The position numbers and the translations under genes are program-made. The notes beneath the pieces were generated by a model. The model was not told where the DNA came from, did no database searches, and saw only the letters and a list, made by a program, of their open reading frames with translations. Positions 2,551 through 23,652 of a DNA stretch of 32,000 nt are shown in pieces (positions within the stretch are counted from its first letter, which is position 1; every line of letters starts with the position of its first letter). The stretch is from Nonlabens ponticola (GTDB lineage Bacteria > Bacteroidota > Bacteroidia > Flavobacteriales > Flavobacteriaceae): positions 2,790,001-2,822,000 of the forward strand of contig NZ_CP034549.1 in assembly GCF_003966335.1 (NCBI RefSeq), written 5' to 3'.

Positions 2551-2564
2551 GCTTTCGCGAAAGC
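2551..2564. repeat. iterated palindrome GCTTTCGCGAAAGC, copy 1 (intergenic)
   Basis: Exact 14-mer, 21 nt after the asnB stop. Extended palindrome CGCTTTCGCGAAAGCG. Confidence 0.95.
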
Positions 2565-2569
2565 GTAAT

Positions 2570-2577
2570 TATCTTTA
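2570..2577 (+). promoter_or_regulatory. candidate -7 promoter box (TATCTTTA, imperfect)
   Basis: 7/8 match to TAnnTTTG, 7 nt upstream of the trp leader ATG. The his leader shows the same spacing. Confidence 0.25.
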
Positions 2578-2584
2578 CACTTCA

Positions 2585-2638
2585 ATGCAAGAAAGAACTC
2601 AAAACTGGTGGTGGTACAACATAGCTCAACAGCCGTGA
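2585..2638 (+). CDS. trpL: trp operon leader peptide (MQERTQNWWWYNIAQQP)
   Basis: 17-codon ORF with three consecutive TGG codons (2606-2614), followed by a terminator and trpE. Confidence 0.75.
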   Translation: MQERTQNWWWYNIAQQP

Positions 2639-2662
2639 AGTCACCCGTATGTTTAAATACAA

Positions 2663-2689
2663 AGGTCTGCTTTACGGCAGGCCTTTTTT
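2663..2689 (+). terminator. trp attenuator terminator
   Basis: AGGTCTGC (2663-2670) pairs with GCAGGCCT (2677-2684), followed by a T-run (2684-2689). GCCGTGAAG (2632-2640, spanning the leader stop codon) can pair with CTTTACGGC (2670-2678) as an antiterminator. Confidence 0.75.
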
Positions 2690-2721
2690 GTTTTAATCTT
2701 TTATTGCACTAATAAATAATC

Positions 2722-4122
2722 ATGTTCAAACCTATAACAACACATAAAAATATCCTGGCAGACACGTTGACGCCAGTAGGTATTTACATGCGGTTGAGAG
2801 ACAAGTATCCAGGTAGTATTCTATTGGAGAGTAACGAGTACGGCAGTCGCAGCAACAGCTATTCCTTTATTTGTTGTAATCCAGTAGCTAGTCTCAATAT
2901 CGACCAGAATTTCATAAGTATGAGCTATCCAGACGGCAGCTCTCATGAACAAGAATTTGATTTGTCCTATGATCTAGCTCGTGGTCTAGAAAAATTTAAA
3001 GATCAATTCTATAGGGATGATAATGAGTTTTCATTTCCTACTAATGGACTGTTTGGATACCTTACGTATGACGCGGTTCAATTATTTGAAAATATCAAAT
3101 TTGACCCTAGTAAAATTGAAACTGATGCCATACCCATGGTCAACTATCAGGTATTTCAAAATGTATTGGTTTTTGACCACTATCACAATCAGCTATATGT
3201 ATTTGACCATGCATATAATGGTGCAGATTCTAAGATGGAATCACTTGTGGACACGATAGAACATCGCGATATTGCTCGGTACAGTTTCAATACCACGCAA
3301 GCTGAACAGTCAGAGATGCAAGATCAAGATTTTAAAAATCTTGTAGCCAAGGGCAAGCAACATTGTCAGCGTGGTGATGTTTTCCAGATCGTCGTCTCAC
3401 GCAAGTTCTCGCAATCCTATAAGGGCGATGATTTCAATGTCTACAGGCAATTAAGAGCGATCAACCCTAGTCCTTATCTATTCTATTTTGATTACGGGAA
3501 CTTTAGAATATTTGGATCCTCGCCAGAGGCTCAAATATTGATCAATGACGATACTGCCAGCATTCAGCCTATCGCAGGAACCTACAAGCGTACAGGAGAT
3601 GATGCCGCAGATTTGCAAGCAGCAAATGACCTTAAAAAGGATCCTAAAGAAGCAGCAGAACATATCATGCTCGTTGATCTGGCTCGCAATGACCTAAGCA
3701 GACATGCTCGCGATGTACAGGTAACAGATTATCAAAATATTCATTTTTATTCTCATGTAATTCATATGGTGAGTACGGTTACAGGCAAAGTAGCGCAAGA
3801 AGATCGTATGGACTTGATAGGCGACACGTTTCCTGCTGGAACATTGAGCGGTGCGCCTAAATATCGCGCCATGCAATTAATCGATGGTCTAGAAAAAAGC
3901 GCTCGGCAATTTTATGGTGGTGCAATAGGATACTTAGGATTTGACGGTAGCCTTAATCACGCCATCATCATTAGAACTATACTATCACAAAATAATACCA
4001 TGTTTTACCGTGCTGGTGCTGGAGTTGTGGTCGACAGCAATCTGGATAGTGAAAATCAAGAAGTTTATAACAAAACCAACGCTTTAAGAAAAGCTATAGA
4101 ACAAGCAAATGAAACAGTTTAA
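2722..4122 (+). CDS. trpE: anthranilate synthase component I
   Basis: 466 aa. N-terminal LLES Trp-feedback motif. Chorismate-binding C-terminal domain (GTLSGAPK, GGAIGY). Confidence 0.95.
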   Translation: MFKPITTHKNILADTLTPVGIYMRLRDKYPGSILLESNEYGSRSNSYSFICCNPVASLNIDQNFISMSYPDGSSHEQEFDLSYDLARGLEKFKDQFYRDDNEFSFPTNGLFGYLTYDAVQLFENIKFDPSKIETDAIPMVNYQVFQNVLVFDHYHNQLYVFDHAYNGADSKMESLVDTIEHRDIARYSFNTTQAEQSEMQDQDFKNLVAKGKQHCQRGDVFQIVVSRKFSQSYKGDDFNVYRQLRAINPSPYLFYFDYGNFRIFGSSPEAQILINDDTASIQPIAGTYKRTGDDAADLQAANDLKKDPKEAAEHIMLVDLARNDLSRHARDVQVTDYQNIHFYSHVIHMVSTVTGKVAQEDRMDLIGDTFPAGTLSGAPKYRAMQLIDGLEKSARQFYGGAIGYLGFDGSLNHAIIIRTILSQNNTMFYRAGAGVVVDSNLDSENQEVYNKTNALRKAIEQANETV

Positions 4123-4597
4123 AACCATTTTGTCAATCATTATCGCCGCTCTCGCATTAACATCATGCGATAATGATAGAGTACTTTTCAAAACCAATCT
4201 TGAAACTAATGACCAAAAAACGAACATAACATATTCACCTAATTTGAATTTTGAATTTGTGGTCGACAGCGCATCTGTTCTTCTTGACAATGAGGATTTG
4301 AAAAATGCCTTACGTGGCGAGACGGCAAAGGGTGGAACGTTATACAAATCAGATAGATTTCAAGTGAAGTTATTCCTAACTACTTTTTATTATTCTGGTG
4401 TTTATCAATATGAATTCAAACTACGCACCTTTAGTAAAGACATGAAAATCATTGATTCTTATACTTTTTCACAAACTACTAGAGATCCTGCCTGTGCCGC
4501 TACCCTAACTAGCGATCTGGAAATCACAAAAAGTTGTGAAGATGGATCAGAAATTATTGCCCAAATTGACGATTACGGTAAATTCATTGAGCGATGA
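4109..4597 (+). CDS. hypothetical lipoprotein embedded in the trp operon
   Basis: 162 aa. Signal peptide with lipobox LTS-C (Cys20). The start overlaps the trpE end by 14 nt and the stop overlaps the trpG start (ATGA). No family recognised. Confidence 0.6.
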   Translation: MKQFKTILSIIIAALALTSCDNDRVLFKTNLETNDQKTNITYSPNLNFEFVVDSASVLLDNEDLKNALRGETAKGGTLYKSDRFQVKLFLTTFYYSGVYQYEFKLRTFSKDMKIIDSYTFSQTTRDPACAATLTSDLEITKSCEDGSEIIAQIDDYGKFIER

Positions 4598-5169: not shown

Positions 5170-5170
5170 T

Positions 5171-6163
5171 ATGAAAGAGATTTTGAATGAGTTGTTTGAT
5201 CATAAGACGCTTTCGCGAAAGCGTGCTCACGACATACTTACAGCCATAACAGCTGGTGAAGTCAATGATGCACAGATCGCCGCATTTCTTACCGTGTACG
5301 GAATGCGCAGCGTGACAGTGGATGAGCTCGCTGGTTTCCGCGATGCTATGCTGGAGCAGGCTTTGCTTATTGATCTAACCAAATACAATCCTATTGATTT
5401 ATGTGGTACTGGCGGCGATGGCAAGAACACTTTTAATATCAGTACACTAGCAAGCTTCGTTACTGCTGGTGCTGGAGTGAAAGTTGCCAAACACGGTAAT
5501 TATGGAGTAAGTTCTGTAAGCGGTTCTAGTAATGTAATGGAATCCATGGGTTTCAAGTTTACCAATGATTTTGAAACGCTGGAAAGGCAAATTGATCAAG
5601 CGAATATATGTTTCCTGCACGCTCCCTTATTTCACCCTGCGATGAAAGCAGTAGCACCAATTAGAAGAGCACTCGGAATCAAAACATTTTTCAATATGTT
5701 GGGTCCACTTGTAAATCCAGCAAGACCCAAATTACAAAGTGTTGGTGTTTTTAATTTGCAATTAGCGCGCAACTATGAATATCTGTTCCAAAATGAAGAA
5801 GGAAAACGATATGCTATCCTGCATGCACACGACGGTTATGACGAGGTGAGTTTGACGGGAAAAACAAGAGTTGCTGGTAACAATGGTGTGGTAGACTTAA
5901 AACCAGCAGACTTCAACTTAAATAAATTGACGCTGGAACAAATTGCTGGTGGCGAAACCGTTGAAGACGCAGCTGCCATCTTCAAAAATGTATTGGAAAA
6001 TAAGGCTACAGAGGCTCAAAAATCAGTCGTAATAGCAAACGCGGCAACCGCTATCGCTGTGGCTCAAGAAGTTTCACTTGTTGAAGCAGTTGGTAAAGCA
6101 AGAACATCATTAGAATCTAGCAAAGCGCTGGAATGCTTCAATAAATTACTGGAATTACAATAA
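5171..6163 (+). CDS. trpD: anthranilate phosphoribosyltransferase
   Basis: 330 aa. GTGGDG PRPP-binding motif and KHGN motif. Confidence 0.95.
   Translation: MKEILNELFDHKTLSRKRAHDILTAITAGEVNDAQIAAFLTVYGMRSVTVDELAGFRDAMLEQALLIDLTKYNPIDLCGTGGDGKNTFNISTLASFVTAGAGVKVAKHGNYGVSSVSGSSNVMESMGFKFTNDFETLERQIDQANICFLHAPLFHPAMKAVAPIRRALGIKTFFNMLGPLVNPARPKLQSVGVFNLQLARNYEYLFQNEEGKRYAILHAHDGYDEVSLTGKTRVAGNNGVVDLKPADFNLNKLTLEQIAGGETVEDAAAIFKNVLENKATEAQKSVVIANAATAIAVAQEVSLVEAVGKARTSLESSKALECFNKLLELQ
5209..5222. repeat. iterated palindrome copy 2 (inside trpD, read as LSRK)
   Basis: Exact 14-mer. Extended palindrome ACGCTTTCGCGAAAGCGT. Confidence 0.95.
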
Positions 6164-7054: not shown

Positions 7055-7689
7055 TGATCAAAGTTTGCGGCATGCGAGAAACGAGCAATATCGATGAACT
7101 ACAACAACTCGATATTGATTTTATGGGCATCATCCGCTATCCTAAAAGCAAGCGGTATGTTGACGATCAGCAAAAGGCTGCCATTGAGCAATGCACGATG
7201 AATAAAGGCACCGTTGGCGTTTACGTCAATGCGTCCCTACAAGACATCTTGCAGGATATCATTCCCTTACAGATGGATGTTGTACAGTTGCACGGTGATG
7301 AGGATTCCGCTTTCGCGAAAGCATTACTAGAATTAGACATCAAGGTATTTAAGGCATTTCAAATTACCGATGACTTTGACTTTGATATTCTGAAAGATTG
7401 GGAACAACTAGCTGAAGCCTATCAAGGAAAATTATTTTTCCTATTTGACACAGCAACCAAAAATTATGGCGGCAGCGGCAAGAAATTTAATTGGCAATTA
7501 CTCGACAACTATCAAGGAATGGTGCCTTTTCTATTAAGCGGTGGCATTGCGCCAGATGATGCAGAGTCCATTAAGAATATCAAACACGACATGTTTCTGG
7601 GAGTGGATCTCAACTCGCGATTTGAGGACGAGCCAGGAATTAAAAATATCAAAGCTATCAAAGGCTTTGTTGAAAAATTGAGAAAATGA
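7051..7689 (+). CDS. trpF: phosphoribosylanthranilate isomerase
   Basis: 212 aa. N-terminal IKVCGM motif. Overlaps trpC and trpB by 4 nt each. Confidence 0.9.
7309..7322. repeat. iterated palindrome copy 3 (inside trpF, read as AFAKA)
   Basis: Exact 14-mer with a GATTCC 5' flank. Confidence 0.95.
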
Positions 7690-8861
7690 GCTATCAAGTA
7701 GATGAGAAAGGATTTTACGGCGAGTTCGGCGGTGCTTTCATACCAGAATTGCTGTATCCTAATATTGAGGAACTTCAGGAAAACTATCTGAAGATCGAGA
7801 AAAGTGAGGAATTCCAACAGGAGTTTCACCAACTGCTCAAGGATTATGTAGGCCGCCCAACACCCTTGTTTTTGGCAAAGCGACTGTCTGCTAAATACGG
7901 CGCTGAAATCTGGTTAAAACGCGAAGATCTTTGTCACACTGGTGCTCACAAAGTAAATAACACGATAGGCCAAATCCTACTTGCAGAAAAACTCGGCAAG
8001 AAACGCATCATCGCAGAAACCGGTGCAGGTCAACATGGTGTCGCCACCGCAACTGTTTGTGCCTTAAAAGGTCTGGATTGTATCGTCTATATGGGCGAGA
8101 AAGATATTGAACGACAAGCACCCAACGTTGCACGCATGAAAATGCTCGGCGCAGAGGTTAGACCAGCAACCAGCGGCTCTAAAACGCTAAAAGATGCTAC
8201 AAACGAGGCTATGCGCGACTGGATCAACAATCCAGAAGACACGCACTACATTATAGGATCGGTAGTTGGACCGCATCCCTATCCAGATATGGTGGCGAGA
8301 TATCAAGCCATCATTTCTAAAGAGATCAAAGAGCAAATGCAAGGTTTGCCTGATTATGTTATTGCTTGTGTAGGTGGTGGAAGTAATGCCATGGGTGCAT
8401 TTTATCACTTTTTGGATGATCCAACAGTCAAACTCATAGGTGTTGAAGCGGCTGGAATGGGCGTAGATACAGACAAAACTGCCGCGACTTTGACCTTAGG
8501 AACACCAGGAGTTTTACACGCCAGCAGATCCATCATGATGCAAGATAAAGACGGTCAAGTAGTAGAACCACACAGTATAAGTGCTGGACTTGATTATCCA
8601 GGCATTGGACCAGCACACGCTTGGTTAAAAGTTTCTGATCGTGCTAAGTACATGGCTGTCACCGATGCCGATGCGTTGACTGCTGCTGTAGAATGCAGCC
8701 GATTAGAAGGCATTATTCCTGCCTTGGAAACTGCTCACGCTTTTTCTGTTTTGAAAGATCTAGAATTGAAACCAACAGATCGTGTGGTGATCAACTTATC
8801 AGGTCGTGGTGATAAAGATATGGACACCTATATGCGTGAATTGAAACTCAACGAACTTTAA
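7686..8861 (+). CDS. trpB: tryptophan synthase beta chain
   Basis: 391 aa. [12 protein letters not shown]-lysine motif and GGGSNA motif. Confidence 0.97.
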
Positions 8862-9662: not shown

Positions 9663-9676
9663 GCTTTCGCGAAAGC
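9663..9676. repeat. iterated palindrome copy 4 (intergenic)
   Basis: Exact 14-mer, 15 nt after the trpA stop. Extended 20-bp palindrome TACGCTTTCGCGAAAGCGTA (9660-9679). Confidence 0.95.
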
Positions 9677-9702: not shown

Positions 9703-9750
9703 ATGAATAACAACGCAACACATCACCATCATTTTGACACTTACCTGTAG
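9703..9750 (+). CDS. hisL: his operon leader peptide (MNNNATHHHHFDTYL)
   Basis: 15-codon ORF with four consecutive His codons (9721-9732), followed by a terminator and hisG. Confidence 0.75.
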   Translation: MNNNATHHHHFDTYL

Positions 9751-9790
9751 GCGAGCAAAAAATGTATTGATGTAACTCAACATATTTAAA

Positions 9791-9817
9791 AACCCGTCTA
9801 TTTCAGGCGGGTTTTTG
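9791..9817 (+). terminator. his attenuator terminator
   Basis: CCCGTCT (9793-9799) pairs with AGGCGGG (9805-9811), with one G-U pair, followed by TTTTT. Confidence 0.7.
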
Positions 9818-9818
9818 C

Positions 9819-9924
9819 ATTTCTGCGCAGGCAGAAATCTCTGACTCGGGAAACCTGAAGCGACCGAATCAGATGAAAACAATAGTTTCATGATTTTCCC
9901 CTTTGGGGAAATGTCCGCAGGACA
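9819..9924 (+). repeat. train of five back-to-back hairpins in the hisG 5' region
   Basis: ATTTCTGC-GCAG-GCAGAAAT (9819-9838). TCTGACTCGG...CCGAATCAGA (9840-9873). ATGAAA...TTTCAT (9873-9891). TTTCCCC-TTT-GGGGAAA (9895-9911). TGTCC-GCA-GGACA (9912-9924). Confidence 0.7.
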
Positions 9925-9945
9925 ATGGGGCCAATAATAAAAATT

Positions 9946-10797: not shown

Positions 10798-12092
10798 TGG
10801 AAATCGTACTCAACCCATCTACGAGCCAGCAGGCTAGTTTATTGGAGAGACCGATGAAACAAAGGTCTGAAGTGGATAGCGCTGTAAAAGACATTATCCG
10901 ACTCGTGCGCGATAATGGCGATCAGGCATTGATTGCATTTGCACAGCAATTTGACAACGCCACCATTACAGATTTGAGAGTCTCTGCTCAAGAAATTACC
11001 GCGGCAGCTGCTCAAGTTCCAGCAGATTTGAAATCTGCAATCCAGACAGCCTACGACAACATCTATAAGTTTCACCAGGCTTGTTTTACTCGTGAATATC
11101 CAGTAGTAGAAACCATGCCTGGCATGACGTGCTGGAGAAAATCATTGCCTATTCAAAAAGTAGGATTGTATATTCCTGGAGGCTCGGCACCGCTGTTCTC
11201 GACAGTTTTGATGCTGGCAGTACCTGCAAAAATTGCTGGAAACAAGCAAGTAGTCCTTTGTAGCCCAACGGATGAGCATGGAAATATAAATCCAGTGGTT
11301 CTGTACACCGCAAGTCTTTGTGGCGTCACAGAGATCTATAAAGTTGGCGGTGCTCAGGCGATCGCTGCCATGACACACGGCACGCAAAGCGTTCCAGCGG
11401 TACACAAGATTTTTGGTCCTGGTAATGCTTTTGTCACTAGAGCAAAAGAATTGGCACAGCAGCAAGGTGTCGCGATCGACATGCCGGCTGGACCTAGCGA
11501 GGTTTTGGTCATTGCAGATCAACACGCTAATCCAGAATTCGTGGCTTCAGACTTGTTAGCTCAAGCAGAACACGGTCACGATTCCCAAGTAATTCTACTT
11601 ACAGATTCTGAGAAACTTGCTAAGGATGTAGACGATGCAGTAAAGTCTCAAATAAGCACGCTTTCGCGAAAGCAAACTGCCGAAGCTGCCCTGCAGAATA
11701 GTAGAACTATCGTGTTACAAAGCATTACAGAATGTGTAGCCTGGTCTGATGTATATGCACCAGAGCACTTAATTATCAACACACAAGATGCTGAGGCAGT
11801 AGCAAATCAAATCGAAGTAGCTGGCTCCATATTTATAGGTTCTTACACTTGTGAGAGCTTGGGCGATTATGCCAGCGGCACCAATCATACCTTGCCTACT
11901 TACGGTTATGCAAGGAATTACAGCGGTGTGTCTGTCGATAGCTTTGTCAATAAAGTGACCTACCAGAAAGCGACCGCTCATGGGTTACAAAACCTAGGTC
12001 CTGCTGTTGAAATCATGGCAGCCGCCGAAGGTCTGGATGCGCATAAAAATGCGGTGAGTGTAAGATTAAAAAGTTTAGAAAATAACGATTAG
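10797..12092 (+). CDS. hisD: histidinol dehydrogenase
   Basis: 431 aa. QAEHG motif. Start overlaps the hisG stop. Confidence 0.95.
   Translation: MEIVLNPSTSQQASLLERPMKQRSEVDSAVKDIIRLVRDNGDQALIAFAQQFDNATITDLRVSAQEITAAAAQVPADLKSAIQTAYDNIYKFHQACFTREYPVVETMPGMTCWRKSLPIQKVGLYIPGGSAPLFSTVLMLAVPAKIAGNKQVVLCSPTDEHGNINPVVLYTASLCGVTEIYKVGGAQAIAAMTHGTQSVPAVHKIFGPGNAFVTRAKELAQQQGVAIDMPAGPSEVLVIADQHANPEFVASDLLAQAEHGHDSQVILLTDSEKLAKDVDDAVKSQISTLSRKQTAEAALQNSRTIVLQSITECVAWSDVYAPEHLIINTQDAEAVANQIEVAGSIFIGSYTCESLGDYASGTNHTLPTYGYARNYSGVSVDSFVNKVTYQKATAHGLQNLGPAVEIMAAAEGLDAHKNAVSVRLKSLENND
11660..11673. repeat. iterated palindrome copy 5 (inside hisD, read as LSRK)
   Basis: Exact 14-mer. Confidence 0.95.
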
Positions 12093-13345: not shown

Positions 13346-13361
13346 TTGAATTAAAAAAGCG

Positions 13362-13381
13362 AAGCCGTCCAGCGATGGCTT
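13362..13381. repeat. GC-rich hairpin module AAGCCGTC-CAGC-GATGGCTT
   Basis: Located in the hisC-hisB spacer. The preceding 15-mer AAAGCGAAGCCGTCC (13356-13370) is identical to 16312-16326 inside hisF. Confidence 0.7.
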
Positions 13382-13386
13382 GACTC

Positions 13387-14496
13387 ATGAAAAAAGTATT
13401 ATTTATAGATCGCGACGGGACCATCGTCAAGGAGCCGCCAACTGATTATCAGCTGGATAGTTTTGAGAAGCTGGAGTTCTTGCCTATGGCAATTACCCAA
13501 TTGCACCGTATTGCACGAGAGTTGGATTATGAGCTGGTAATGGTGACCAATCAGGACGGTCTGGGAACGGATAGCTTCCCTGAAGATACCTTCTGGCCAG
13601 TGCATAATTTGATGATGGACATTCTTGAAAAAGAAGGCGTGACATTTAGTGAGGTTTTGATTGATCGTTCTTTTCCAGAACAGAACGCACCGACTCGCAA
13701 ACCTCAAACTGGTTTGTTGACACACTATATTAAAGGCGACTATGACCTTGCCAACAGCTTTGTCATAGGCGATCGCAACAGCGATATGCAGCTCGCCAAA
13801 AATTTGAGCTGCAAAGGAATTCAGCTGCCATCGATTACAGACGACACGACTTTTGAAGACGAATTGGTTGTTTTAAAAACCGATTCTTGGAAAGATATTT
13901 TTCAGTTTTTAAAAGGTCAACCGCGCAAAGTATCGGTAAGCCGTAAAACCAATGAAACCGATATCAACATCACGCTCAATCTGGACGGCTCTGGAAACGG
14001 AACGATAGATACAGGTTTGAAATTCTACGATCACATGCTGGAGCAATTGCAGCGCCATGGTTCGCTGGACTTGGATATCAAAGTGAACGGTGATCTGGAA
14101 ATCGACGAGCACCACACCATTGAGGACACCGCTATTGCGCTAGGTGACGCTTTCGCGAAAGCGTTATCCTCTAAAAAAGGGATTAATAGATATGGGTTTT
14201 TGTTACCTATGGACGACTCATTGGCCAAAGTAGCAATTGATTTTGGCGGAAGACCATGGATCGTTTGGGAAGCAGAATTTAAAAGAGAATACGTGGGCGA
14301 TATGCCAACCGAATTGTTTTTCCACTTTTTCAAATCCTTCAGCGATGCAGCAAAGTGTAACTTGAATATGAAAGTGGAAGGCGACAATGAGCACCACAAA
14401 ATTGAGTCGCTGTTCAAAGCTTTTGCGAAAGCGATAAAAATGGCAGTCAAACAAACAGGTGACGGTAAATTACCTAGCACTAAAGGCACATTATGA
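13387..14496 (+). CDS. hisB: bifunctional histidinol-phosphatase / imidazoleglycerol-phosphate dehydratase
   Basis: 369 aa. N-terminal HAD motif FIDRDGT. C-terminal IGPD domain ([24 protein letters not shown]). Confidence 0.95.
14149..14162. repeat. iterated palindrome copy 6 (inside hisB, read as AFAKA)
   Basis: Exact 14-mer. Extended palindrome ACGCTTTCGCGAAAGCGT. Confidence 0.95.
14419..14432. repeat. decayed palindrome copy GCTTTTGCGAAAGC (inside hisB)
   Basis: 13/14 match. The single C->T change is at the first C of the central CGCG. Read as AFAKA. Confidence 0.6.
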
Positions 14497-15898: not shown

Positions 15899-16692
15899 GC
15901 CTCAAAAAAAGAATTATACCATGCCTAGACATCAAGGATGGTCGCACCGTCAAAGGAATAAACTTCGTTGGACTGCGCGATGCTGGTGATCCAGTACAGT
16001 TGGCACAGCAGTATGCCGATCAAGGTGCTGATGAATTGTGCTTTCTCGACATCACGGCTACCGTAGAAAAACGGGAAACGCTTGTACCACTAGTCCGCGA
16101 GATCGCTGCTGTGTTGAATATTCCGTTCACCGTTGGTGGTGGCATTAATGATGTCAAACTCGCCAAAGAAATCATCAAGGCTGGAGCCGATAAAATTGCG
16201 GTCAATAGCGCCGCCGTTCACAGACCTGAATTGATCAATGAATTGGCTGCCGAATTGGGAAATCAGTGTGTGGTGGTGGCTGTCGATACTAAGCGTATAG
16301 CGTTAAGCGATAAAGCGAAGCCGTCCCTCGACGGCTGGAAGGATAAGGTGTTTGTCTCTGGTGGTCGCACGGAAACTGACAAAGAAACAATAGCGTGGTG
16401 TACAGAATGTGAGCAACGTGGTGCTGGAGAGATTTTGCTAACAAGCATGGATCACGATGGTACTAAAAACGGATTTGCTTTGGAGATTACGGATACGCTT
16501 TCGCGAAAGCTAAATATACCGATCATCGCATCTGGTGGTGGTGGTACGGCTGCTCATTTTGAGGAATTATTCAAAGATACCCATGCCAGCGCAGGACTCG
16601 CGGCAAGTATATTCCATTTTGGTGAGTTACCAGTGCCTGAATTGAAAAAGCAATTGGCAGACGCTAATGTAGAGGTGAGAATAGTTATTTAA
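15895..16692 (+). CDS. hisF: imidazole glycerol phosphate synthase cyclase subunit (expanded)
   Basis: 265 aa. [16 protein letters not shown] motif and [15 protein letters not shown] motif. Confidence 0.95.
16312..16336 (+). repeat. hairpin module AGCCGTC-CCTC-GACGGCT with a shared 15-mer, inside hisF
   Basis: The 15-mer 16312-16326 is identical to 13356-13370. 7-bp stem at 16319-16336. Lies in a roughly 10-aa extra segment of HisF ([12 protein letters not shown]). Confidence 0.7.
16497..16510. repeat. iterated palindrome copy 7 (inside hisF, read as LSRK)
   Basis: Exact 14-mer. Confidence 0.95.
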
Positions 16693-17379
16693 ATGGACAT
16701 GATGAAACCAGATTTTTCTAAATACAATGATGGACTTGTTCCCGCAATCATCCAAGACGCTTCCAGCGGTAAGGTTTTGATGTTGGGATACATGAATGAA
16801 GAAGCCTATCAAAAGACCGTAGACGATAAACGCGTGACCTTTTTTTCACGCAGTAAAAATAGACTGTGGACTAAAGGCGAGACTTCCAAAAATTATCTGG
16901 ATGTCATGAGTATGGCTTTGGATTGTGATCAGGATGCAATTCTAATCAAAGCTCACGCCCATGGCCCGACTTGTCACACAGGTAGCGAATCCTGTTTTGA
17001 TGCAAATAGCAGCAATGAAGATGATGAAATGTTACGTTTTCCTGCCTCGCCGGCAGGCAAGCGCAAAAGCGAGATCCTGAAACAAGTTCAGGATGACAAG
17101 TTCACCATCAACGATCTTGAAAAAACCATTCATCAAAGAATTGATGACAAGGTAGAAGGTTCTTACACGTACTCATTGATCCAAAAAGGGATTAATAAAG
17201 TGGCTCAAAAAGTAGGCGAAGAAGCGGTAGAAACCGTTATAGATGCCATCAACGGCAAGGATGAAGACTTTCTTTATGAAGCGGGCGATTTGATGTATCA
17301 CTATCTCGTTTTACTCAAAGCTAAAGGATACTCGTTAGCTGATATTGAAGTTGAGTTGGCAAAGCGTCATGGCAAGTAG
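16693..17379 (+). CDS. hisIE: bifunctional phosphoribosyl-AMP cyclohydrolase / phosphoribosyl-ATP pyrophosphatase (expanded linker)
   Basis: 228 aa. GPTCHTGSESCF cyclohydrolase motif followed by a PRA-PH helical domain. About 30 extra residues lie between the two domains. Confidence 0.93.
   Translation: MDMMKPDFSKYNDGLVPAIIQDASSGKVLMLGYMNEEAYQKTVDDKRVTFFSRSKNRLWTKGETSKNYLDVMSMALDCDQDAILIKAHAHGPTCHTGSESCFDANSSNEDDEMLRFPASPAGKRKSEILKQVQDDKFTINDLEKTIHQRIDDKVEGSYTYSLIQKGINKVAQKVGEEAVETVIDAINGKDEDFLYEAGDLMYHYLVLLKAKGYSLADIEVELAKRHGK
17072..17101 (+). repeat. 30-nt hairpin module, copy in the hisIE linker
   Basis: 29/30 identical to 12594-12623. Read as ILKQVQDDK. Preceded by a second hairpin, CCTGCC-TCGCC-GGCAGG (17041-17057). 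Confidence 0.85.
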
Positions 17380-17493
17380 TTGCCATTTGAAGCGATTCAA
17401 GCGGTATAAAAATCATTGCTTGAGCCTATGACTATTATTGGAATAACTTTAAACTAATTCCTAGAGGTATTACCGTCAAGATTTTCAAAATTT

Positions 17494-17510
17494 CTGAGCT
17501 CGACAGGATT
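17494..17510 (-). repeat. tRNA-Arg 3'-end fragment, copy 3 (15/17)
   Basis: CTGAGCTCGACAGGATT compared with GTGACCTCGACAGGATT at the tRNA 3' end. Confidence 0.75.
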
Positions 17511-17576
17511 GTTTCATAATTCTAAGCTAGCTAACGTTGGTGAATAAGAAACTAACATTCAACTTTTTTATAAAAC

Positions 17577-17607
17577 AAAGAACCACGCTTGCTAGCGTGG
17601 TTTCTTG
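17577..17607. terminator. bidirectional hairpin terminator
   Basis: GAACCACGC-TTGCTA-GCGTGGTTTC, flanked by an A-run and a T-run. Confidence 0.6.
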
Positions 17608-17614
17608 AATAATA

Positions 17615-17631
17615 GTGACCTCGACAGGATT
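17615..17631 (-). repeat. tRNA-Arg 3'-end fragment, copy 2 (17/17)
   Basis: GTGACCTCGACAGGATT is identical to 17726-17742. Confidence 0.85.
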
Positions 17632-17673
17632 GCTGCGCGTCCTGACAAAGCTCCGCTTTGAGAATACCACAAA

Positions 17674-17707
17674 CAAAAAAACGCTCAAGTAAACTTGGCG
17701 TTTTTTC
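17674..17707. terminator. bidirectional hairpin terminator downstream of tRNA-Arg
   Basis: ACGCTCAAG-TAAA-CTTGGCGT, flanked by AAAAAAA and TTTTTT. Confidence 0.65.
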
Positions 17708-17726
17708 TTATTGCGGTATTCATTCG

Positions 17727-17800
17727 TGACCTCGACAGGATTCAAACCTGTAACCCTCAGAGCCGAAATCTGATGCGCTATTCAGTTGCGCCACGAGGCC
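17727..17800 (-). tRNA. tRNA-Arg (anticodon TCG)
   Basis: Manual cloverleaf fold of 74 nt. 7-bp acceptor stem with one G-U. D stem GCGC/GCGC. Anticodon stem TCAGA/TCTGA with loop TTTCGGC. 5-nt variable loop. T stem ACAGG/CCTGT. CCA is not encoded. Confidence 0.85.
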
Positions 17801-17863: not shown

Positions 17864-20800
17864 TTAATCTTCATCACTCTCTTCAACCACCAGATAATCA
17901 AGATTTAGTGCATTGAATTTCTGGTTGAATTGCTTGATATCATCAGAGAGTACTTTGTTGAATTTTGCTAATTCTGTTTCAATTTCTGCGCTTAATTCAT
18001 CACGCACCGCAATCATTTGCTGCGTTGGTGCAAAATCTCCTACTGAAGCTAGTGCATTCAAATGAGCTAATTTATTGGTCAATCGTATTGGGAAATTCAA
18101 TGGATCTTGACCACTGCGATTTTGAGTTTGGTAGAGTGCCTTTTCTACCTCATCAAATTTAGTAAGCATTGTGTCTGCTAACTCAACCATTTCCTTGACG
18201 CCATCTTCCTCGCGATCTCCATATGCTGTTTTAAAGGCTTTGAGTTTCTTGTTGAAATCTCGGATTTTCTCAATGGATTTATGCGCCTCGTCAACCGTTT
18301 CATTGACAGAATCAACAAAGTCAAATTGAGATTGCATATCTGCTGCTGTCGCTTCACTATTGGGCGCTGCTACGATTTCAATGTTGCGTTCTAAAGATTC
18401 TTGCGGTGTTTCCAAAACTACTTTGTACGTGCCAGGCGTTGCCCGAGGTCCTGTAAGATCTGCCCACCATAGGATCATGCCTGGCAATTCTTTGGCACCA
18501 TCATATTCTGTATCCCAATTGAACATGTTAGAACCTGCATCTACCTTCAACTTGTTCTTCTTGTCATAGGTACTGTATTCTTTAATGAGCTTATCGTTGC
18601 TATCATAAAACTTAAGTGCCACACTATCTGTTGCCATTGCCTCTGGAATATAATAATGCACTTGGACTCCAGCAGGATGATTAGTTCCCGATGTCAATGA
18701 TGATCTACCACCACGACCAGCCATGCGGTACGCCGTTTTGGGTGCAAATAGCTGTAATGATTCTGCAGTGGTTTGCTTGTTACGCTTTCGCGAAAGCGGT
18801 ATCATCTTCAAGCCCTGTCTCACTAATTCTAAATCGTCATGGATCCAAAGGCTGCGACCCTGTGTAGCGACAACGAGATTGTTCTGTTTTACCGCAAGAT
18901 CTGTGATAGGTACGATGGGTAGATTCATCTGGAAGCTAGACCAGTTATCACCATTATCGTCGCTGATGTACAGACCAGTCTCGGTTCCAGCATATAGAAA
19001 TCCTTTTTGTCGATCATCTTCACGCACCACGCGAGTGAAGTGCTCACTAGGAATGCCATCGTTGATTTGTTGCCATGATTTACCATAATCTGTCGTTCTA
19101 AATAGATAAGGTTTAAAATCGCCCAGTTTATATCGCGTCGCAGCTAGATAGCAAGTTGCGGCATCGTATCTGCTAGGTTCTATGCTGTTGATTTGTGCCC
19201 ATTCTGGTAGTTTTTTAGGGGTAATATTATTCCAACTTTGCCCACCATCTTTAGATAAGTGAACAAGCCCATCATCACTACCTACCCAAAGCTCACCTTG
19301 TTTGACTGGCGATTCTGCCGCAGCAAAGATGGTCCCATAATACTCGACGCTTGTATTATCTTGAGTTATTGGACCACCGCTTGAAACGAGTTTCGTTGGG
19401 TCGTTTCTTGTCAAATCGTCTGATAATGTCTGCCAGCTCTCGCCCTCGTTGGTTGTGACGTGCACATGATTTGAGAAAGCATAAAGTTTGTTAGGTTCAT
19501 GCTTAGAAAACAGGATAGGGAAATTCCACTGGAAGCGGTATTTCATATCCTCGGCGCCATGACCCATTGGGTTGTCTGGCCATACATTTACCGCTCTAGT
19601 AGATTTTGTCGCGTGATTGTATCTAGTCAGAAAACCGCCATAGCTACCACCGTAAACAATGTCATTGTTCTTAGGATCTACCGCAATGTGTGCGCTCTCG
19701 CCACCTGCGGTGCCTTCCCAATCTGCATCTGTAATGGAACCGCCTGTCGTACGGTGAGGTATCCTAATAGTACCGTTGTCCTGTTGTGCCACATAAATGC
19801 GATATGGGAATGAATCGTCTGTCGTTACTCTATAATACTGTGCGGTAGGCTGGTTGTGATAAGTACTCCACGTCTCGCCACCATCATAGGTGATTTGTGC
19901 ACCACCATCATCGCCCATGATCATACGGTCTGGATCTTCTGGAGCTATCCATAAATCATGGTGGTCACCATGAGGCGCGCGTGCGCTGATGAAATTACGG
20001 CCACCATCGGTACTTTTATGGTAAGAAACGTTTACTACATAAACCTTGTCCTCGTCTTGAGTGTCCGCATAAATTCTTGTGTAATACCACGCTCGTTGTC
20101 TCAGGCTGCGATCATCATTGGTTTTTGTCCAGGTAAGACCACCATCGTTACTGCGATACACGCCGCCTTCATCCTTGTTTTCTACAATGGCATACACGCG
20201 ATCGCTATTCACCGGCGATACTGTGACACCCATGATACCTAACGTACCTTGGGCAAAACCATCGTTTGTTGAAATCTCCTTCCACGTCTCACCATAATCG
20301 GTGCTTTTCCACATCGCGCTGCCATCGCCACCACTACTCAAGCTGTACGGCGTGCGTTGCAGTCTCCATGTTGTTGCATATAGATTGCGTGGATTTGATG
20401 GGTCGATAATCAAATCGACTGCGCCAGCCATGTCATTGACATATAATACCTTTTTCCAGTTTTTACCACCGTCGATGGATTTGTAAACACCACGATCTGT
20501 AGATTCCTTATAGATATTACCCAGAACGCCTGCGTAAACGATATTATGATCATTAGGATCAATCGCAATGCGAGGTACGTGCCTGCTTTCTGGTAGTCCA
20601 GAGAATTCCCAAGTCTTACCTGCATCCACTGTTTTCCATATACCGTAACCACTAGAAACGTTACCGCGCACGGTTTTCTCGCCACCACCTACATAAATCA
20701 CATTATGATCACTAGGTGCTACGCTTACCGCTCCTATACTACCGCCAAAGTAGCCATCTGAGATATTCATCCACGTCCTACCACCATCCAGCGTTTTCCA

Positions 20801-21016
20801 TACGCCACCACCGGTGCTACCAAAGTAAAATAGGTTAGGTTGTCCAGGCACGCCCGTTACCGCTGCGCTGCGCCCACCACGGAATGGTCCTAGTTGTCTA
20901 AACTTTTGTGACTCGTAGAATTTTTGTGCCTCTGGTGGTTCTGGTAACTGTTGAGAATTTGCTTTCGCGAAAGCAAAAACTAAAAAGACATAGGTAACAA
21001 TGCTTGAAATCTTCAT
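17864..21016 (-). CDS. secreted BNR/Asp-box repeat protein (sortilin/VPS10-like, GH74-like beta-propeller)
   Basis: 1050 aa with a signal peptide. At least 10 Asp-box motifs of the form (S/T)xDxGxxW (WKTLDGGRTW, WKTVDAGKTW, YKSIDGGKNW, WKSTDYGETW, YRSNDGGLTW and others). Helical C-terminal region. Confidence 0.8.
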   Translation of the reverse strand: MKISSIVTYVFLVFAFAKANSQQLPEPPEAQKFYESQKFRQLGPFRGGRSAAVTGVPGQPNLFYFGSTGGGVWKTLDGGRTWMNISDGYFGGSIGAVSVAPSDHNVIYVGGGEKTVRGNVSSGYGIWKTVDAGKTWEFSGLPESRHVPRIAIDPNDHNIVYAGVLGNIYKESTDRGVYKSIDGGKNWKKVLYVNDMAGAVDLIIDPSNPRNLYATTWRLQRTPYSLSSGGDGSAMWKSTDYGETWKEISTNDGFAQGTLGIMGVTVSPVNSDRVYAIVENKDEGGVYRSNDGGLTWTKTNDDRSLRQRAWYYTRIYADTQDEDKVYVVNVSYHKSTDGGRNFISARAPHGDHHDLWIAPEDPDRMIMGDDGGAQITYDGGETWSTYHNQPTAQYYRVTTDDSFPYRIYVAQQDNGTIRIPHRTTGGSITDADWEGTAGGESAHIAVDPKNNDIVYGGSYGGFLTRYNHATKSTRAVNVWPDNPMGHGAEDMKYRFQWNFPILFSKHEPNKLYAFSNHVHVTTNEGESWQTLSDDLTRNDPTKLVSSGGPITQDNTSVEYYGTIFAAAESPVKQGELWVGSDDGLVHLSKDGGQSWNNITPKKLPEWAQINSIEPSRYDAATCYLAATRYKLGDFKPYLFRTTDYGKSWQQINDGIPSEHFTRVVREDDRQKGFLYAGTETGLYISDDNGDNWSSFQMNLPIVPITDLAVKQNNLVVATQGRSLWIHDDLELVRQGLKMIPLSRKRNKQTTAESLQLFAPKTAYRMAGRGGRSSLTSGTNHPAGVQVHYYIPEAMATDSVALKFYDSNDKLIKEYSTYDKKNKLKVDAGSNMFNWDTEYDGAKELPGMILWWADLTGPRATPGTYKVVLETPQESLERNIEIVAAPNSEATAADMQSQFDFVDSVNETVDEAHKSIEKIRDFNKKLKAFKTAYGDREEDGVKEMVELADTMLTKFDEVEKALYQTQNRSGQDPLNFPIRLTNKLAHLNALASVGDFAPTQQMIAVRDELSAEIETELAKFNKVLSDDIKQFNQKFNALNLDYLVVEESDED
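18784..18797. repeat. iterated palindrome copy 8 (inside the BNR gene, read as LSRK)
   Basis: Exact 14-mer. Confidence 0.95.
20961..20974. repeat. iterated palindrome copy 9 (BNR signal peptide, read as AFAKA)
   Basis: Exact 14-mer. Extended 20-bp palindrome TTTGCTTTCGCGAAAGCAAA. It encodes the A-x-A signal-peptidase site. Confidence 0.95.
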
Positions 21017-21748: not shown

Positions 21749-21828
21749 GAACATCAGGACAGTATTGAGCATGCCTATAGCGGCATCTTTGTACGGTAAT
21801 TAAAAACAACAATTAAAAATTATATATC

Positions 21829-22377
21829 ATGAGTTATTTAAATGTACCATCGAGAGAAGATGTAAGTCCTGCAAACCAGGCAATATTTGACAATCTGGAA
21901 AAGAAAATAGGTTTTGTACCTAATCTATATGCAACTTATGCGCACAGTGAGTTTGGATTAAATAATCTACTACAATTAGGTGGTGCGCCATCATCATTAT
22001 CTAATAAAGAACAGCAAATCGTTAATCTAACGGTGAGCCAGGTAAACAACTGTGACTACTGTCTAGCAGCACATACCGCAATGGGAAAAGGCGCTGGTTT
22101 CAACGACGATCAAATTCTTGAAATAAGAACTGGTCACGCCAGTTTTAATGAGAAGTATGATGCTCTTGCAGCTCTATCTAAAAATATTACCGAGAATAGA
22201 GGTTATGCCGATGAACTACATGTGACTAATTTCTTAGAAGCTGGATATACCAAAGAAAATCTAGTCGATGTCATCTTGAAGGTAGGTGAGAAAACCATCT
22301 CAAATTACTTGCATAATCTTACTAAGGTACCTGTTGATTTTCCAGCAGCACCATCTCTTAAACCTGAATTAGCCTAA
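21829..22377 (+). CDS. carboxymuconolactone decarboxylase/AhpD-like family protein
   Basis: 182 aa with the NNCDYCLAAH motif typical of the AhpD-core/CMD family. Confidence 0.8.
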   Translation: MSYLNVPSREDVSPANQAIFDNLEKKIGFVPNLYATYAHSEFGLNNLLQLGGAPSSLSNKEQQIVNLTVSQVNNCDYCLAAHTAMGKGAGFNDDQILEIRTGHASFNEKYDALAALSKNITENRGYADELHVTNFLEAGYTKENLVDVILKVGEKTISNYLHNLTKVPVDFPAAPSLKPELA

Positions 22378-22413
22378 GGTTCACAACGCTTTCATAGTTG
22401 GTTTGTAGATAGG

Positions 22414-22440
22414 TCCCTAATCTTGATTTAAGATTAGGGA
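22414..22440. terminator. bidirectional terminator between convergent genes
   Basis: TCCCTAATCTT-GATTT-AAGATTAGGGA, a perfect 11-bp stem. Confidence 0.75.
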
Positions 22441-22450
22441 TCTATTGATT

Positions 22451-23281
22451 TTACGAATTCCTAAAAGCCAGCGGCGATGTACCTGCATGCTTCTTGAAAA
22501 ACTTAGAGAAATGACTAGGTTCATTATACCCTAGTTCATAAGCGATTTCTTCTGCAGTTTTGTCTGAATATAGTAGCAGTCGTTTAGCCTCTGCGGTGAT
22601 GCGGTCATTAATTATTTTTAATGGACTGCGCACATCATGTTTTTTGAAAAAGTTGCTGAGTGTCTTGGGTGACTTGAAAAGCATCTCGGCATAGTCTGCA
22701 ACTTGATGTTTCTCTTTATAATGTTGCTCAACAAGGATATTGTATTTGCGTATGAGATCAACTTGCTTTACAGACATGTCGTTGACGTTTTCTAATCTTT
22801 TGACAAGTCTAGTTCCTGTAATCAGCATACGTTTGAGAAGCGTGCGCAGCATCTCGCCCTGAATGTTGTCTTTAATCTCAAATTCTTCCTGAAATAACAC
22901 CAACATCGCATCCATGGATTTTTGCTCTTTCTCGCTCAAATCTATGATCGGTGCTGTGGACGAACCATAGAATAATAATCCCATACAAGATACCTCGCTA
23001 TCATGATCTTTAATGCAGTAGAACTCGCGATTGAAGACATAGGCAATAAGGCCGTAGTTGTCTTTTGGAATCTCGATGACATTCACTGGTGTGCAAAAAA
23101 GCACTTGGTTTTCAGTTAGCGTCACATCATAACCATCGACCACAATTTGCTGTGAACCATGAGTACACCAAACGATTTTATAGAGATTCTTTTCTTTAAG
23201 TAAGTGTAAGGATGGACCACATTGAAAGCTTGTAACCGTAAACTGGCCTTCTTCTTTTATATTATGATAATCAAGTTTCAT
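22451..23281 (-). CDS. AraC family transcriptional regulator
   Basis: 276 aa. C-terminal double HTH (IAYELGYNEPSHFSKFFKKHAGTSPLAFR). Confidence 0.9.
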   Translation of the reverse strand: MKLDYHNIKEEGQFTVTSFQCGPSLHLLKEKNLYKIVWCTHGSQQIVVDGYDVTLTENQVLFCTPVNVIEIPKDNYGLIAYVFNREFYCIKDHDSEVSCMGLLFYGSSTAPIIDLSEKEQKSMDAMLVLFQEEFEIKDNIQGEMLRTLLKRMLITGTRLVKRLENVNDMSVKQVDLIRKYNILVEQHYKEKHQVADYAEMLFKSPKTLSNFFKKHDVRSPLKIINDRITAEAKRLLLYSDKTAEEIAYELGYNEPSHFSKFFKKHAGTSPLAFRNS

Positions 23282-23311
23282 GACTTAAATATACTCAAAA
23301 GCTTGATGCAA

Positions 23312-23611
23312 CTATTTGAGATTTTTTCTCATGTTCCTGATGCTTTGTGCGTTTACAACTTTAAATCCATTTCGCTTAAGTTTTGACGCCGCGATACCAC
23401 TGCGACCGCCCATAGCGCAATAAACAACAATAGGTTTATTCTTATCTAGTTTATCCATTTGTGCATCAATTCCCTGCACAGGAATATTGATCGATCCTTC
23501 TATGTGATCGCTATTATATTCTGACGCTGTGCGCACATCTAGTAGTGTCGCATCCTGCTCAACATAGTCTTTTATTTTACTGCTCTTGTTTTTATTGAAA
23601 AATCCCCACAT
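23312..23611 (-). CDS. rhodanese-like domain protein
   Basis: 99 aa. Active-site loop CAMGGRS in a single rhodanese fold. Confidence 0.85.
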   Translation of the reverse strand: MWGFFNKNKSSKIKDYVEQDATLLDVRTASEYNSDHIEGSINIPVQGIDAQMDKLDKNKPIVVYCAMGGRSGIAASKLKRNGFKVVNAQSIRNMRKNLK

Positions 23612-23638
23612 GTGGCTAACTGTTTTTGGGTTAGTACG

Positions 23639-23652
23639 CTTTCGCGAAAGCT
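23639..23652. repeat. iterated palindrome copy 10 (intergenic)
   Basis: Exact 14-mer, 8 nt downstream of the hydroxylase stop on the minus strand. Confidence 0.95.

Follow-up and report, generated by a model that had tools for sequence, protein, structure and literature searches.

Nonlabens and Dokdonia carry a high-copy DNA word that is specific to these genera, the 14-letter palindrome GCTTTCGCGAAAGC, and a copy seldom becomes established less than about 1.7 kb from another. In the marine bacterium Nonlabens ponticola, ten consecutive copies follow one another at gaps of about 2.3 kb, and this run is an inherited stretch that is packed near the exclusion limit. Of known systems, the tags that Neisseria and Haemophilus use in DNA uptake resemble the pattern most.

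The word and its copies

The DNA analysed (the window) is a 32-kb stretch of N. ponticola, positions 2,790,001-2,822,000 of the forward strand of contig NZ_CP034549.1 (assembly GCF_003966335.1), within which lie the trp and his operons. The word occurs 11 times in exact form, and matches with up to two mismatches number 13 in total, against 0.07 expected by chance. It is mostly extended to the 16-mer CGCTTTCGCGAAAGCG. The flanks are T-rich and C-poor on one side and mirrored, A-rich and G-poor, on the other, and this symmetric AT-richness extends to about 18 nt.

A sequence-only reading of the window had held that the copies disregard gene boundaries, reading frame and strand, and we see the same: three are intergenic, and the others are found in coding sequence in two frames and on both strands. 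The first intergenic copy (2551..2564) lies 21 nt past the asnB stop codon, and has orthologous exact copies with near-identical flanks in Nonlabens marinus (locus L121) and Hel1_33_55 (L123). The second (9663..9676) is placed 15 nt past the trpA stop and upstream of the his leader, with orthologous exact copies in all three sister loci (L121, L122 and L123), and the third (23638..23651) is 9 nt beyond the stop of a minus-strand Biopterin_H-like gene. Within genes, the word is read as LSRK in trpD (5209..5222, from codon 13), hisD (11660..11673, where outgroups have LPRK), hisF (16497..16510) and a minus-strand BNR/VPS10 gene (18784..18797, from codon 740, in a variable loop). It is read as AFAKA in trpF (7309..7322), hisB (14149..14162), the signal-peptide region of the BNR/VPS10 gene (20961..20974, from codon 15, minus strand) and orf358 (31650..31663, minus strand). 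The trpD and trpF copies each have an exact counterpart at the orthologous position in L121 and L123, and those of hisD, hisB and hisF have orthologues in three of three sister species.

Beyond the window, 190 exact copies were counted in 771 kb of Nonlabens/Dokdonia-group DNA. About 91 of 120 word-bearing genome blocks belong to Nonlabens, Dokdonia or allied Flavobacteriaceae and hold several copies per 8 kb, and the remaining 29 are singletons from mostly high-GC taxa. The sampled copies use all three reading frames, with 76% inside ORFs and 24% intergenic. An outgroup his operon has 0 copies in 21 kb. Outside the full word the inner hexamer TCGCGA shows no enrichment, with 92 occurrences against 91-97 expected (CGCG, 825 against about 1000). 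Copies are also lacking from presumed newer DNA, for which there are two examples only: the AT-rich region at 27.1-30.3 kb of the window, and the first 6 kb of L124, which bears RHS-type genes. The former had already been pointed out in the sequence-only reading as an AT-rich region after the run, and its GC content at 27-28 kb is 0.33.

Spacing in the window and across the two genera

The nine gaps between the ten consecutive copies measure 2658, 2100, 2354, 1997, 2489, 2348, 2287, 2177 and 2677 bp, giving a mean of 2343 bp, an SD of 235 bp and a CV of 0.100. The gap list drawn up earlier was right for eight of these, with only the last given 1 bp too long, as 2678. Trials that scattered 11 sites uniformly over 32 kb gave a CV of 0.10 or less for the most even run of 10 in about 5e-7 of cases, confirming that the even run first described from sequence is real. 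A decayed copy follows 1966 bp after the 23638 copy, also as described. In the sister loci, the stretch matching window positions 782 to 2551 contains zero copies.

Gaps were sampled in blocks of 8-15 kb drawn at random from DNA of Nonlabens, Dokdonia and relatives, yielding about 250 gap-to-next-copy measurements, of which 88 were complete gaps and 163 were ended by a block edge. Over a total exposure of 325 kb at distances below 1.5 kb, 9 next-copy events were seen where about 68 were expected at the plateau rate, which is a depletion of approximately 8-fold (Poisson P = 2e-19). Non-random spacing therefore holds across both genera and not in the window alone, and passive, independent spread of copies, which the sequence-only reading had argued against, is excluded. 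At distances over about 1.8 kb the chance of encountering another copy no longer changes, with a hazard of 2.0-2.6 per 10 kb, indicating that the spacing rule is a local minimum distance and not a lattice. The flat hazard, together with gaps of 2.1-6.5 kb in random Nonlabens blocks, does not support the preferred period and chromosome-scale placement mechanism that had been proposed. The same reading had set an exponential genome-wide gap distribution as the sign of a local coincidence; the pooled blocks show no genome-wide period and a depletion of short gaps. Some conserved close pairs do exist, 270-950 bp apart, such as a pair at 270 bp in hisB in three species, and since some of these are stably conserved the exclusion is soft and not absolute.

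The distances can be described by random sequential adsorption (the 'car parking' problem), in which saturated gaps range from d to 2d, average 1.34 d and have a CV of 0.21. For a d of 1.7-1.8 kb this fits the window mean of 2.34 kb, and random sequential packing simulated with the same exclusion gave a mean gap of 2.28-2.42 kb, with 1.3-1.5% of 9-gap runs attaining a CV of 0.10 or less. The model is a description and not a mechanism, and its hard minimum is unlike the soft exclusion of the real copies. The 2.3-kb rhythm of the window results from near-limit packing of the trp-his segment and from inheritance. In a literature search we did not find an evenly spaced palindrome pattern described for Nonlabens or Dokdonia.

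Conservation, gain and decay of copies

Most of the run is inherited: for seven of its ten exact copies, the his-trp loci of sister species also have a copy at the orthologous position. Nine window copies are identical there at 14 of 14 letters, at an overall DNA identity of 74-82%, and letter-identical orthologous copies are seen in other pairs too, including Dokdonia and Aquimarina. Between-species identity is 0.79-0.80 within 400 nt of copies and 0.77 beyond, a rise so slight that it gives no strong signature of copy-centred recombination.

The two copies in the BNR gene lie at gene offsets of 2220 (18784 copy) and 43 (20961 copy) in N. ponticola and at 2217 and 40 in YIK11 (L124), where the neighbours of the gene are different, and both align to exact copies in BBFL7 (L026); these copies arrived together with their gene via a rearrangement. 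The 23638 copy, tenth of the run, is specific to the N. ponticola lineage, with no equivalent copy in N. marinus and an uninterrupted 4799-bp gap at that place in BBFL7. The copy in hisD arose by nucleotide substitution, not insertion. It brings no length change and only a Pro-to-Ser substitution (LPRK to LSRK), and LSRK is found in 69 of 72 Nonlabens-like HisD proteins, with LPR-x in 44 of 48 others. In YIK11, a hisC copy matches the closest relative at 4 of 15 positions by hand count on the alignment, and an abrupt gain of this kind has been reported for recent DUS (PMC2397512).

Loss of copies can be followed in the window itself. A one-mismatch copy in hisB (14419..14432, GCTTTTGCGAAAGC, C6 to T), 270 bp after the 14149 copy, had been overlooked in the sequence-only reading. 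The orthologous position holds the exact word in L121, L122 and L123, that is, in all three sister species, from which we infer that the ancestral array was less regular than today's. The same decayed form is found in a TetR gene (25604..25617), at a position where L121, L122, L123 and L026 all have the exact word. A remnant with two mismatches in hisIE (17034..17071, ACGTTTT...CGCAAAAGCG) is interrupted at 17041-17061 by a 21-nt hairpin insertion, CCTGCCTCGCCGGCAGGCAAG; this site is intact in N. marinus (L121 16629) and split likewise in YIK11.

Such decayed forms are rare overall. In the 771 kb of Nonlabens/Dokdonia-group DNA, copies with 0, 1 and 2 mismatches are present at 190:15:14, and decay most often takes the form of C to T at the position-6 CpG, as in 4 of the 15 one-mismatch copies, among them the two that lie in the window. 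Published ratios of exact to one-mismatch copies are 438:947 for the uptake word of A. pleuropneumoniae and 5648:1830 for HIP1 (PMC1939737). The ratio of 190:15 is far from both of these and implies that recognition is close to all-or-none, as one would sooner expect of an enzyme or a dimer that binds tightly.

Possible roles of the word

Our best mechanistic guess, offered tentatively, is that the word may be an uptake-sequence-like tag maintained by biased recombination; uptake and recombination tracts were among the suggestions of the sequence-only reading. A sequence-specific, probably dimeric, receptor would favour the uptake or recombination of word-bearing fragments, with the word acting as a 'self' tag, and word-bearing alleles would displace word-less alleles by molecular drive. 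Mutated copies would be rapidly re-converted from the population, which would account for the rarity of one-mismatch copies. An extra copy would gain no drive when the same fragment or tract of about 2 kb already carries one, and this would account for the exclusion zone. Core operons of long residence would fill to saturation, and recently acquired DNA would remain empty. An even USS distribution is an expected result of molecular drive (PMC7811141), and the spacing of DUS matches conversion-tract size (PMC2397512). Natural competence is known from some Flavobacteriaceae, among them a species with a preference for its own DNA, and k-mer counts up to 10 nt in the same study revealed no DUS (PMC7965970). 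A literature search turned up no reports on competence or DNA uptake in Nonlabens or Dokdonia.

Like DUS and USS, the word is short and exact, present in hundreds to thousands of copies and specific to related genera. Its copies likewise lie within genes in all frames, are enriched in spacers and often come just past stop codons; related species keep them at the same positions, amino-acid changes are imposed or tolerated in permissive protein regions, and spacing is more even than random, possibly on the scale of recombination tracts (PMC7811141, PMC2397512, PMC1939737). Apparently newer DNA may likewise be poor in copies. Lineage-specific over-representation, and coding and non-coding copies at orthologous positions, are thus shared with these tags, but the graded family of near matches expected of them is not seen at 190:15, against about 1:2 in A. 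pleuropneumoniae. The word also differs in being a perfect palindrome of 14-16 bp, where DUS and USS are asymmetric 9-12-mers, and in an exclusion of short gaps that is far sharper than theirs. Close pairs are common among known DUS and USS, which are not palindromes, and no uptake sequence is known from Bacteroidota, the host phylum of the word.

A possible but doubtful alternative is that the copies make up a selected array of sites where a dimeric chromosomal protein binds or is loaded, with a reach of about 1 kb to each side, such as nucleation points for a nucleoid protein, sites for a ParB/Noc-like loader, nicking or strand-discrimination repair sites, or a duplex 'Chi-like' protective signal. 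Each site would cover its neighbourhood, so that a second nearby copy would add nothing and would not be kept; the exclusion zone and near-saturated packing fit this logic of coverage. The perfect palindrome with its symmetric flanks, the nearly all-or-none specificity, and letter-exact conservation between species, which in HisD goes as far as altering an amino acid, all point the same way. We consider it unlikely, in particular, that a very specific dimeric protein acts on the resident chromosome with selection or 'writing' keeping one site per about 2 kb of core genome, which would be a sequence-encoded ruler without a described bacterial counterpart. The parS sites of ParB and the NBS of Noc are dimer-bound perfect palindromes of 14-16 bp with TTTC/GAAA arms and act over kilobases, and the word shares their size and arm sequence. 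However, its half-site geometry is unlike theirs, with arms 2 bp closer together, and they number from a few to about 70 per genome, compared with roughly one word per 2-5 kb, a density higher by orders of magnitude. We know of no bacterial system with around a thousand such sites mostly within genes, the upkeep of so many 14-bp sites by organism-level selection would be costly, and no candidate protein was identified in this analysis. The absence of copies from presumably newer DNA also suggests slow accumulation and not a need for full coverage. According to PMC1939737, which cites the proposal, Karlin and colleagues put forward such roles for evenly spaced USS.

The remaining explanations agree less well with the data. 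It is improbable that the word is a functionless by-product of biased repair or methylation, for example by very-short-patch-type correction towards the word, a reading that has its parallel in HIP1 (GCGATCGC) of cyanobacteria. HIP1 is likewise a high-copy, position-conserved palindrome, spread by substitution in genes and spacers, lineage-specific and of unknown function; the frequent C to T change at the position-6 CpG would be expected if that C were methylated, and genes with DUF559/Vsr-like nuclease domains occur in these genomes, some annotated as fused upstream of hisD. In contrast to the word, HIP1 is 8-10 bp long and built around a methylase/restriction site, and its 10-mer is denser, at about 1 per 0.6 kb in Synechocystis (counts, PMC1939737). 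A repair bias would leave the 1.7-kb exclusion zone unexplained, and the inner TCGCGA, being at expectation outside the word, does not look like the core of a word that grew from a methylase site. Known VSP-type contexts are far shorter than a specificity of 14-16 bp, and we know of no exclusion spacing for HIP1. That the copies are insertions of a short, mobile palindrome (REP, MITE or RPE-like) is barely credible and largely refuted: despite the palindromic form, the many copies and the 21-nt hairpin elements inserted in frame nearby in hisIE, one of them inside a word copy, the HisD copy carries no indel, only Pro-to-Ser, and positions are stable across species. Conservation, save for a compositional bias, ends about 2-4 nt outside the word, with no conserved sequence past 16 nt, and 76% of copies sit in ORFs, across three frames. 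We give as little credence to a local coincidence without a spacing rule, which both the window and the pooled-block probabilities refute, or to an RNA hairpin or terminator. Three window copies do lie 9-21 nt past stop codons, and intergenic copies taken with their extensions give folding energies of -4.9, -8.1 and -9.8 kcal/mol, but the majority of copies are within genes, the core hairpin (-1.9 kcal/mol, z = 0.05) is as weak as those of shuffled sequences, an A-rich 3' flank stands where the stable GC-rich hairpin of an intrinsic terminator would be followed by a T run, and an Rfam search of the word gave no match. A Chi-type signal was also rejected: Chi is an asymmetric 5-8-mer with replication strand bias, which a perfect 14-16-bp palindrome cannot carry.

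The HisD substitution from Pro to Ser shows that a signal in the DNA can win out over conservation of the protein. Should the word prove to be an array of intracellular binding sites, chromosomes would have an organising signal of a new kind. Should it prove to be an uptake sequence, none would have been known before outside Proteobacteria and none that is palindromic, and its sharp exclusion distance and near lack of degenerate copies would make it an unusually clean test system for molecular-drive theory. It would also point to sequence-selective DNA exchange in abundant marine Flavobacteriia. On either reading, the word marks Nonlabens and Dokdonia core DNA as distinct from acquired DNA.

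Copies of the palindrome in the trp–his segment

Window proteins match proteins encoded on the 2,872,100-bp chromosome of Nonlabens ponticola with full identity. In window order, msrA and asnB precede the trp block (trpE, an unnamed ORF, trpG, trpD, trpC, trpF, trpB and trpA) and the his block (his leader, hisG, hisD, hisC, hisB, hisH, hisA, hisF and hisIE). After hisIE come a tRNA gene and a minus-strand gene for a 1050-aa BNR/VPS10 protein, then two CMD-family genes, AraC, a Biopterin_H-like gene, TetR and OYE, and the window ends with YqeY and one unnamed ORF after an AT-rich stretch that contains an MFS gene. The word repeated here, GCTTTCGCGAAAGC, is a perfect 14-nt palindrome, with exact copies starting at 2551, 5209, 7309, 9663, 11660, 14149, 16497, 18784, 20961, 23638 and 31650, and one-mismatch copies (GCTTTTGCGAAAGC) at 14419 and 25604. 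Dinucleotide-preserving shuffles give an expectation of 0.07 matches per window. The sequence-only reading had the exact copies right but missed the one at 14419, a decayed copy that follows 14149 by just 270 bp. Three copies lie 9–21 nt past stop codons, those in coding sequence translate as AFAKA or LSRK, and both strands are used.

From the first to the tenth exact copy, the nine successive distances are 2658, 2100, 2354, 1997, 2489, 2348, 2287, 2177 and 2677 bp (the last had been read as 2678, the others correctly), with a mean of 2343, an SD of 235 and a CV of 0.100. When 11 sites were placed uniformly in 32 kb, an equally even 10-site run arose in about 5e-7 of trials, so the regularity that the sequence-only reading held to be more than chance is real.

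Several other elements lie in the same operons. A his leader peptide (MNNNATHHHHFDTYL, then a stop; 9703–9750) and a hairpin with a T run 3' of it (9789–9816), both upstream of hisG, make up a histidine attenuator (9703–9816), in which Rfam gave no match at the gathering threshold. A 28-nt repeat, AAAGCGAAGCCGTCCAGCGATGGCTTGA, occurs at 13356–13383, 16312–16339 and 26336–26363 (copies 86% and 68% identical) and holds a GCCGTC...GATGGC hairpin; its sites include the hisC–hisB spacer and the interior of hisF.

Orthologous positions and origin by substitution

Syntenic loci were compared from N. marinus (L121), Nonlabens sp. YIK11 (L122) and Hel1_33_55 (L123). The gap series of the sister loci resembles that of the window (2677, 2054, 2436, 1931, 2507, 270, 2333...), and base-level mapping, a check that had been proposed from the sequence, finds nine window copies to be exactly orthologous (2551, 5209, 7309, 9663, 11660, 14149, 14419, 16497 and 25604). 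Orthologous copies keep 14 of 14 bases in surrounding DNA that is merely 74–82% identical, and the window's two decayed copies (14419 and 25604) are intact in sister species. The copy at 23638 is the sole one specific to N. ponticola. Within the BNR gene, copies sit at offsets 43 and 2220 in the window and 40 and 2217 in YIK11, and both align with exact copies in strain BBFL7. As these copies are constant within the gene while the YIK11 gene has different neighbours, the gap at each edge of the BNR gene in the window was made by rearrangement, not by placement. Copies are also common to other orthologous block pairs, including pairs from Dokdonia and Aquimarina. The copies are old and position-specific.

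The HisD alignment shows what a copy costs the protein. At the copy site, LSRK is found in 69 of 72 Nonlabens-like HisD proteins and LPR-x in 44 of 48 from other Flavobacteriaceae, with no length change at the copy; the mobile-element reading was rejected on this alignment. Copies are written via substitution, overriding protein sequence; those in the BNR gene are located in the signal peptide and a variable loop. A hisC copy in YIK11 agrees with its closest relative at just 4 of 15 positions (our own count on the alignment), and this recent gain looks abrupt rather than gradual. An equally abrupt gain of recent DUS, the DNA-uptake sequences of Neisseriaceae, was described by Treangen et al. 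(PMC2397512).

The compared loci also differ in features of other kinds. Several Nonlabens hisD genes are annotated with an N-terminal extension of about 70–180 aa, most about 130 aa (homologues P0014, P0016, P0022, P0037, P0059, P0074, P0076, P0080 and P0081). It bears PF04480 (DUF559, Vsr-like nuclease), mostly with PF18741, and suggests insertion of a small nuclease gene in the hisG–hisD interval; the window's hisD has no such nuclease extension. An element of about 40 nt, GATTTTCCCCTTTGGGGAAATGTCCGCAGGACAATGGGG, is 97–100% identical between species and lies in differing spacers between trp and his genes (window 9892–9930; N. marinus 8083–8121; YIK11 11307–11346; Hel1_33_55 8083–8121, 11305–11346 and 14366–14406). 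It therefore appears to be either a small mobile element or a spacer element under strong constraint. Compared with its N. marinus and Hel1_33_55 counterparts, hisIE carries two in-frame 21-nt hairpin insertions (regions 17041–17061 and 17072–17101). The insertion CCTGCCTCGCCGGCAGGCAAG interrupts a degenerate palindrome copy, and the second insertion results in 30 nt that share 97% identity with ordinary hisC coding sequence (12594–12623). Both are common to YIK11, a species pattern at odds with the apparent relatedness of the four genomes.

Synteny breaks after hisIE, where the minus-strand tRNA gene (17727–17800) and three 21-nt direct repeats (17490–17742, 111–121 nt apart) together span 17490–17800. 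The BNR and CMD genes are located at this break, and the block from OYE to AraC has the opposite orientation in N. marinus. The AT-rich stretch (27033–30233, GC 0.33–0.40) begins at the other inversion breakpoint and contains the MFS transporter and an ORF without a Pfam match. Two repeats also lie in this stretch, one of 62 nt at 27181 and 28578 (79% identical) and one of 41 nt at 27033 and 30193, and the palindrome is absent from it.

Distribution of the word and its minimum spacing

The exact word was scanned for in one genome per species. Among the matches listed (120 blocks), about 91 blocks come from Nonlabens, Dokdonia or unnamed Flavobacteriaceae, where 8 kb usually contains several copies, and 29 are singletons in unrelated, mostly high-GC taxa. 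In 21 kb of an outgroup his operon, neither an exact copy nor a match with up to two mismatches occurs. Taken over 294 sites, the full word is the 16-mer CGCTTTCGCGAAAGCG, with C at −1 in 80%, and it has a T-rich, C-poor flank that reaches about −18 and is mirrored on the opposite side. Across 771 kb from these genera, exact, one-mismatch and two-mismatch forms number 190:15:14. The word is thus far more ‘digital’ than USS, the uptake sequences of Pasteurellaceae, or the cyanobacterial iterated palindrome HIP1, for which exact and one-mismatch counts are 438:947 and 5648:1830, respectively (PMC1939737). Of the 190 copies, 45 fall outside ORFs of at least 100 codons; the remainder are coding and occupy all three frames (77:27:41). 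Among the matches listed, the viral contigs mostly have single copies, including a set of isolate-project viral genomes of about 50 kb (IMG taxon ids starting with 2974...) that have one copy each, and a few have 2–3 copies 3–6 kb apart. The latter could derive from prophages or from host DNA of these genera.

Genome-wide spacing was assessed with random blocks taken from related genomes and metagenomes in place of the N. ponticola chromosome; the blocks gave censored observations of how far away the next copy lies. Pooled genome and low-GC metagenome blocks gave 88 complete and 163 censored gaps. The hazard per 10 kb is 0.08 at 0–0.5 kb, 0.45 at 0.5–1 kb, 0.32 at 1–1.5 kb and 1.19 at 1.5–1.8 kb, then 1.8–2.6 from 1.8 to about 5 kb. 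Below 1.5 kb, 9 events were observed where about 68 were expected (P = 2e-19; genome blocks alone, 5 events in 188 kb of exposure), which indicates soft exclusion up to about 1.7 kb. Past this distance the process is memoryless, and the pooled blocks show no drop in hazard after 2.7 kb. Neither the gap list nor the hazard table gives a clear sign of a lattice with missing sites, in which gaps would be multiples of 2.3 kb. In random Nonlabens blocks the gaps run from 2.1 to 6.5 kb, Dokdonia blocks show a weak mode at 2–3 kb, and other tight runs exist (e.g. 1999, 2345, 2329 and 2739 on a metagenome contig). These related blocks therefore bear out a non-random spacing in the depletion of short gaps, but not a 2.3-kb period.

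At the average pooled-block hazard a run like that of the window essentially never arises, and the trp–his segment is therefore locally saturated. Random sequential packing to saturation with a minimum of 1.7–1.8 kb gives a mean gap of 2.28–2.42 kb and a CV of 0.21, and 1.3–1.5% of its 9-gap runs are as even as the window. A dead-time-plus-exponential model at local density gives P = 0.05–0.19 for dead times of 1.8–1.95 kb, and lower values for dead times shorter than 1.8 kb. The saturated stretch descends from an ancestor shared by these Nonlabens species, the N. ponticola run being slightly more regular through decay of 14419 and 25604 and gain of 23638. In short, the rule is local minimum spacing plus inheritance. 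The sequence-only reading was right to invoke a non-passive process, but in view of this rule its periodicity at chromosome scale was overstated.

Candidate mechanisms

Because the 14-mer essentially never arises by chance, each copy needs a positive force. If that force disappeared near an existing copy, an exclusion zone would arise naturally. Uptake-sequence drive is the known process that works in this way: a single tag per imported fragment suffices, and tags build up in long-resident DNA until their distribution turns relatively even, as is expected under such drive (PMC7811141). In Neisseria, DUS spacing follows conversion-tract length (PMC2397512). The Flavobacteriaceae include competent species, among them R. 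columbina, which prefers its own DNA; that study found no DUS, with k-mers counted only up to 10 nt (PMC7965970). We tentatively take an uptake-tag mechanism to be the likeliest explanation, with rather less than even confidence. Arguing against it are the perfect palindrome, the rarity of degenerate copies, the sharp exclusion, and a searched literature with nothing relevant on competence in Nonlabens or Dokdonia. The first three match the main rival, a putative tight dimeric binder on the chromosome with kilobase-scale reach. The slightly higher interspecies identity near copies is weak and confounded by gene conservation, and does not discriminate between these readings.

Outside the word, TCGCGA and CGCG occur at expected frequency. 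The methylase-site reading was rejected on these inner-site counts, which also lend no support to a purely repair-driven, HIP1-like origin, which would also leave the spacing unexplained. Reading the word as a terminator or RNA element failed direct tests.

The searched literature has no mention of the word or its core, and nothing relevant on palindromes in Dokdonia or iterated palindromes in Bacteroidetes. As far as that literature shows, the element is undescribed, and it is best placed with the over-represented genomic words DUS, USS and HIP1, as a new variant.
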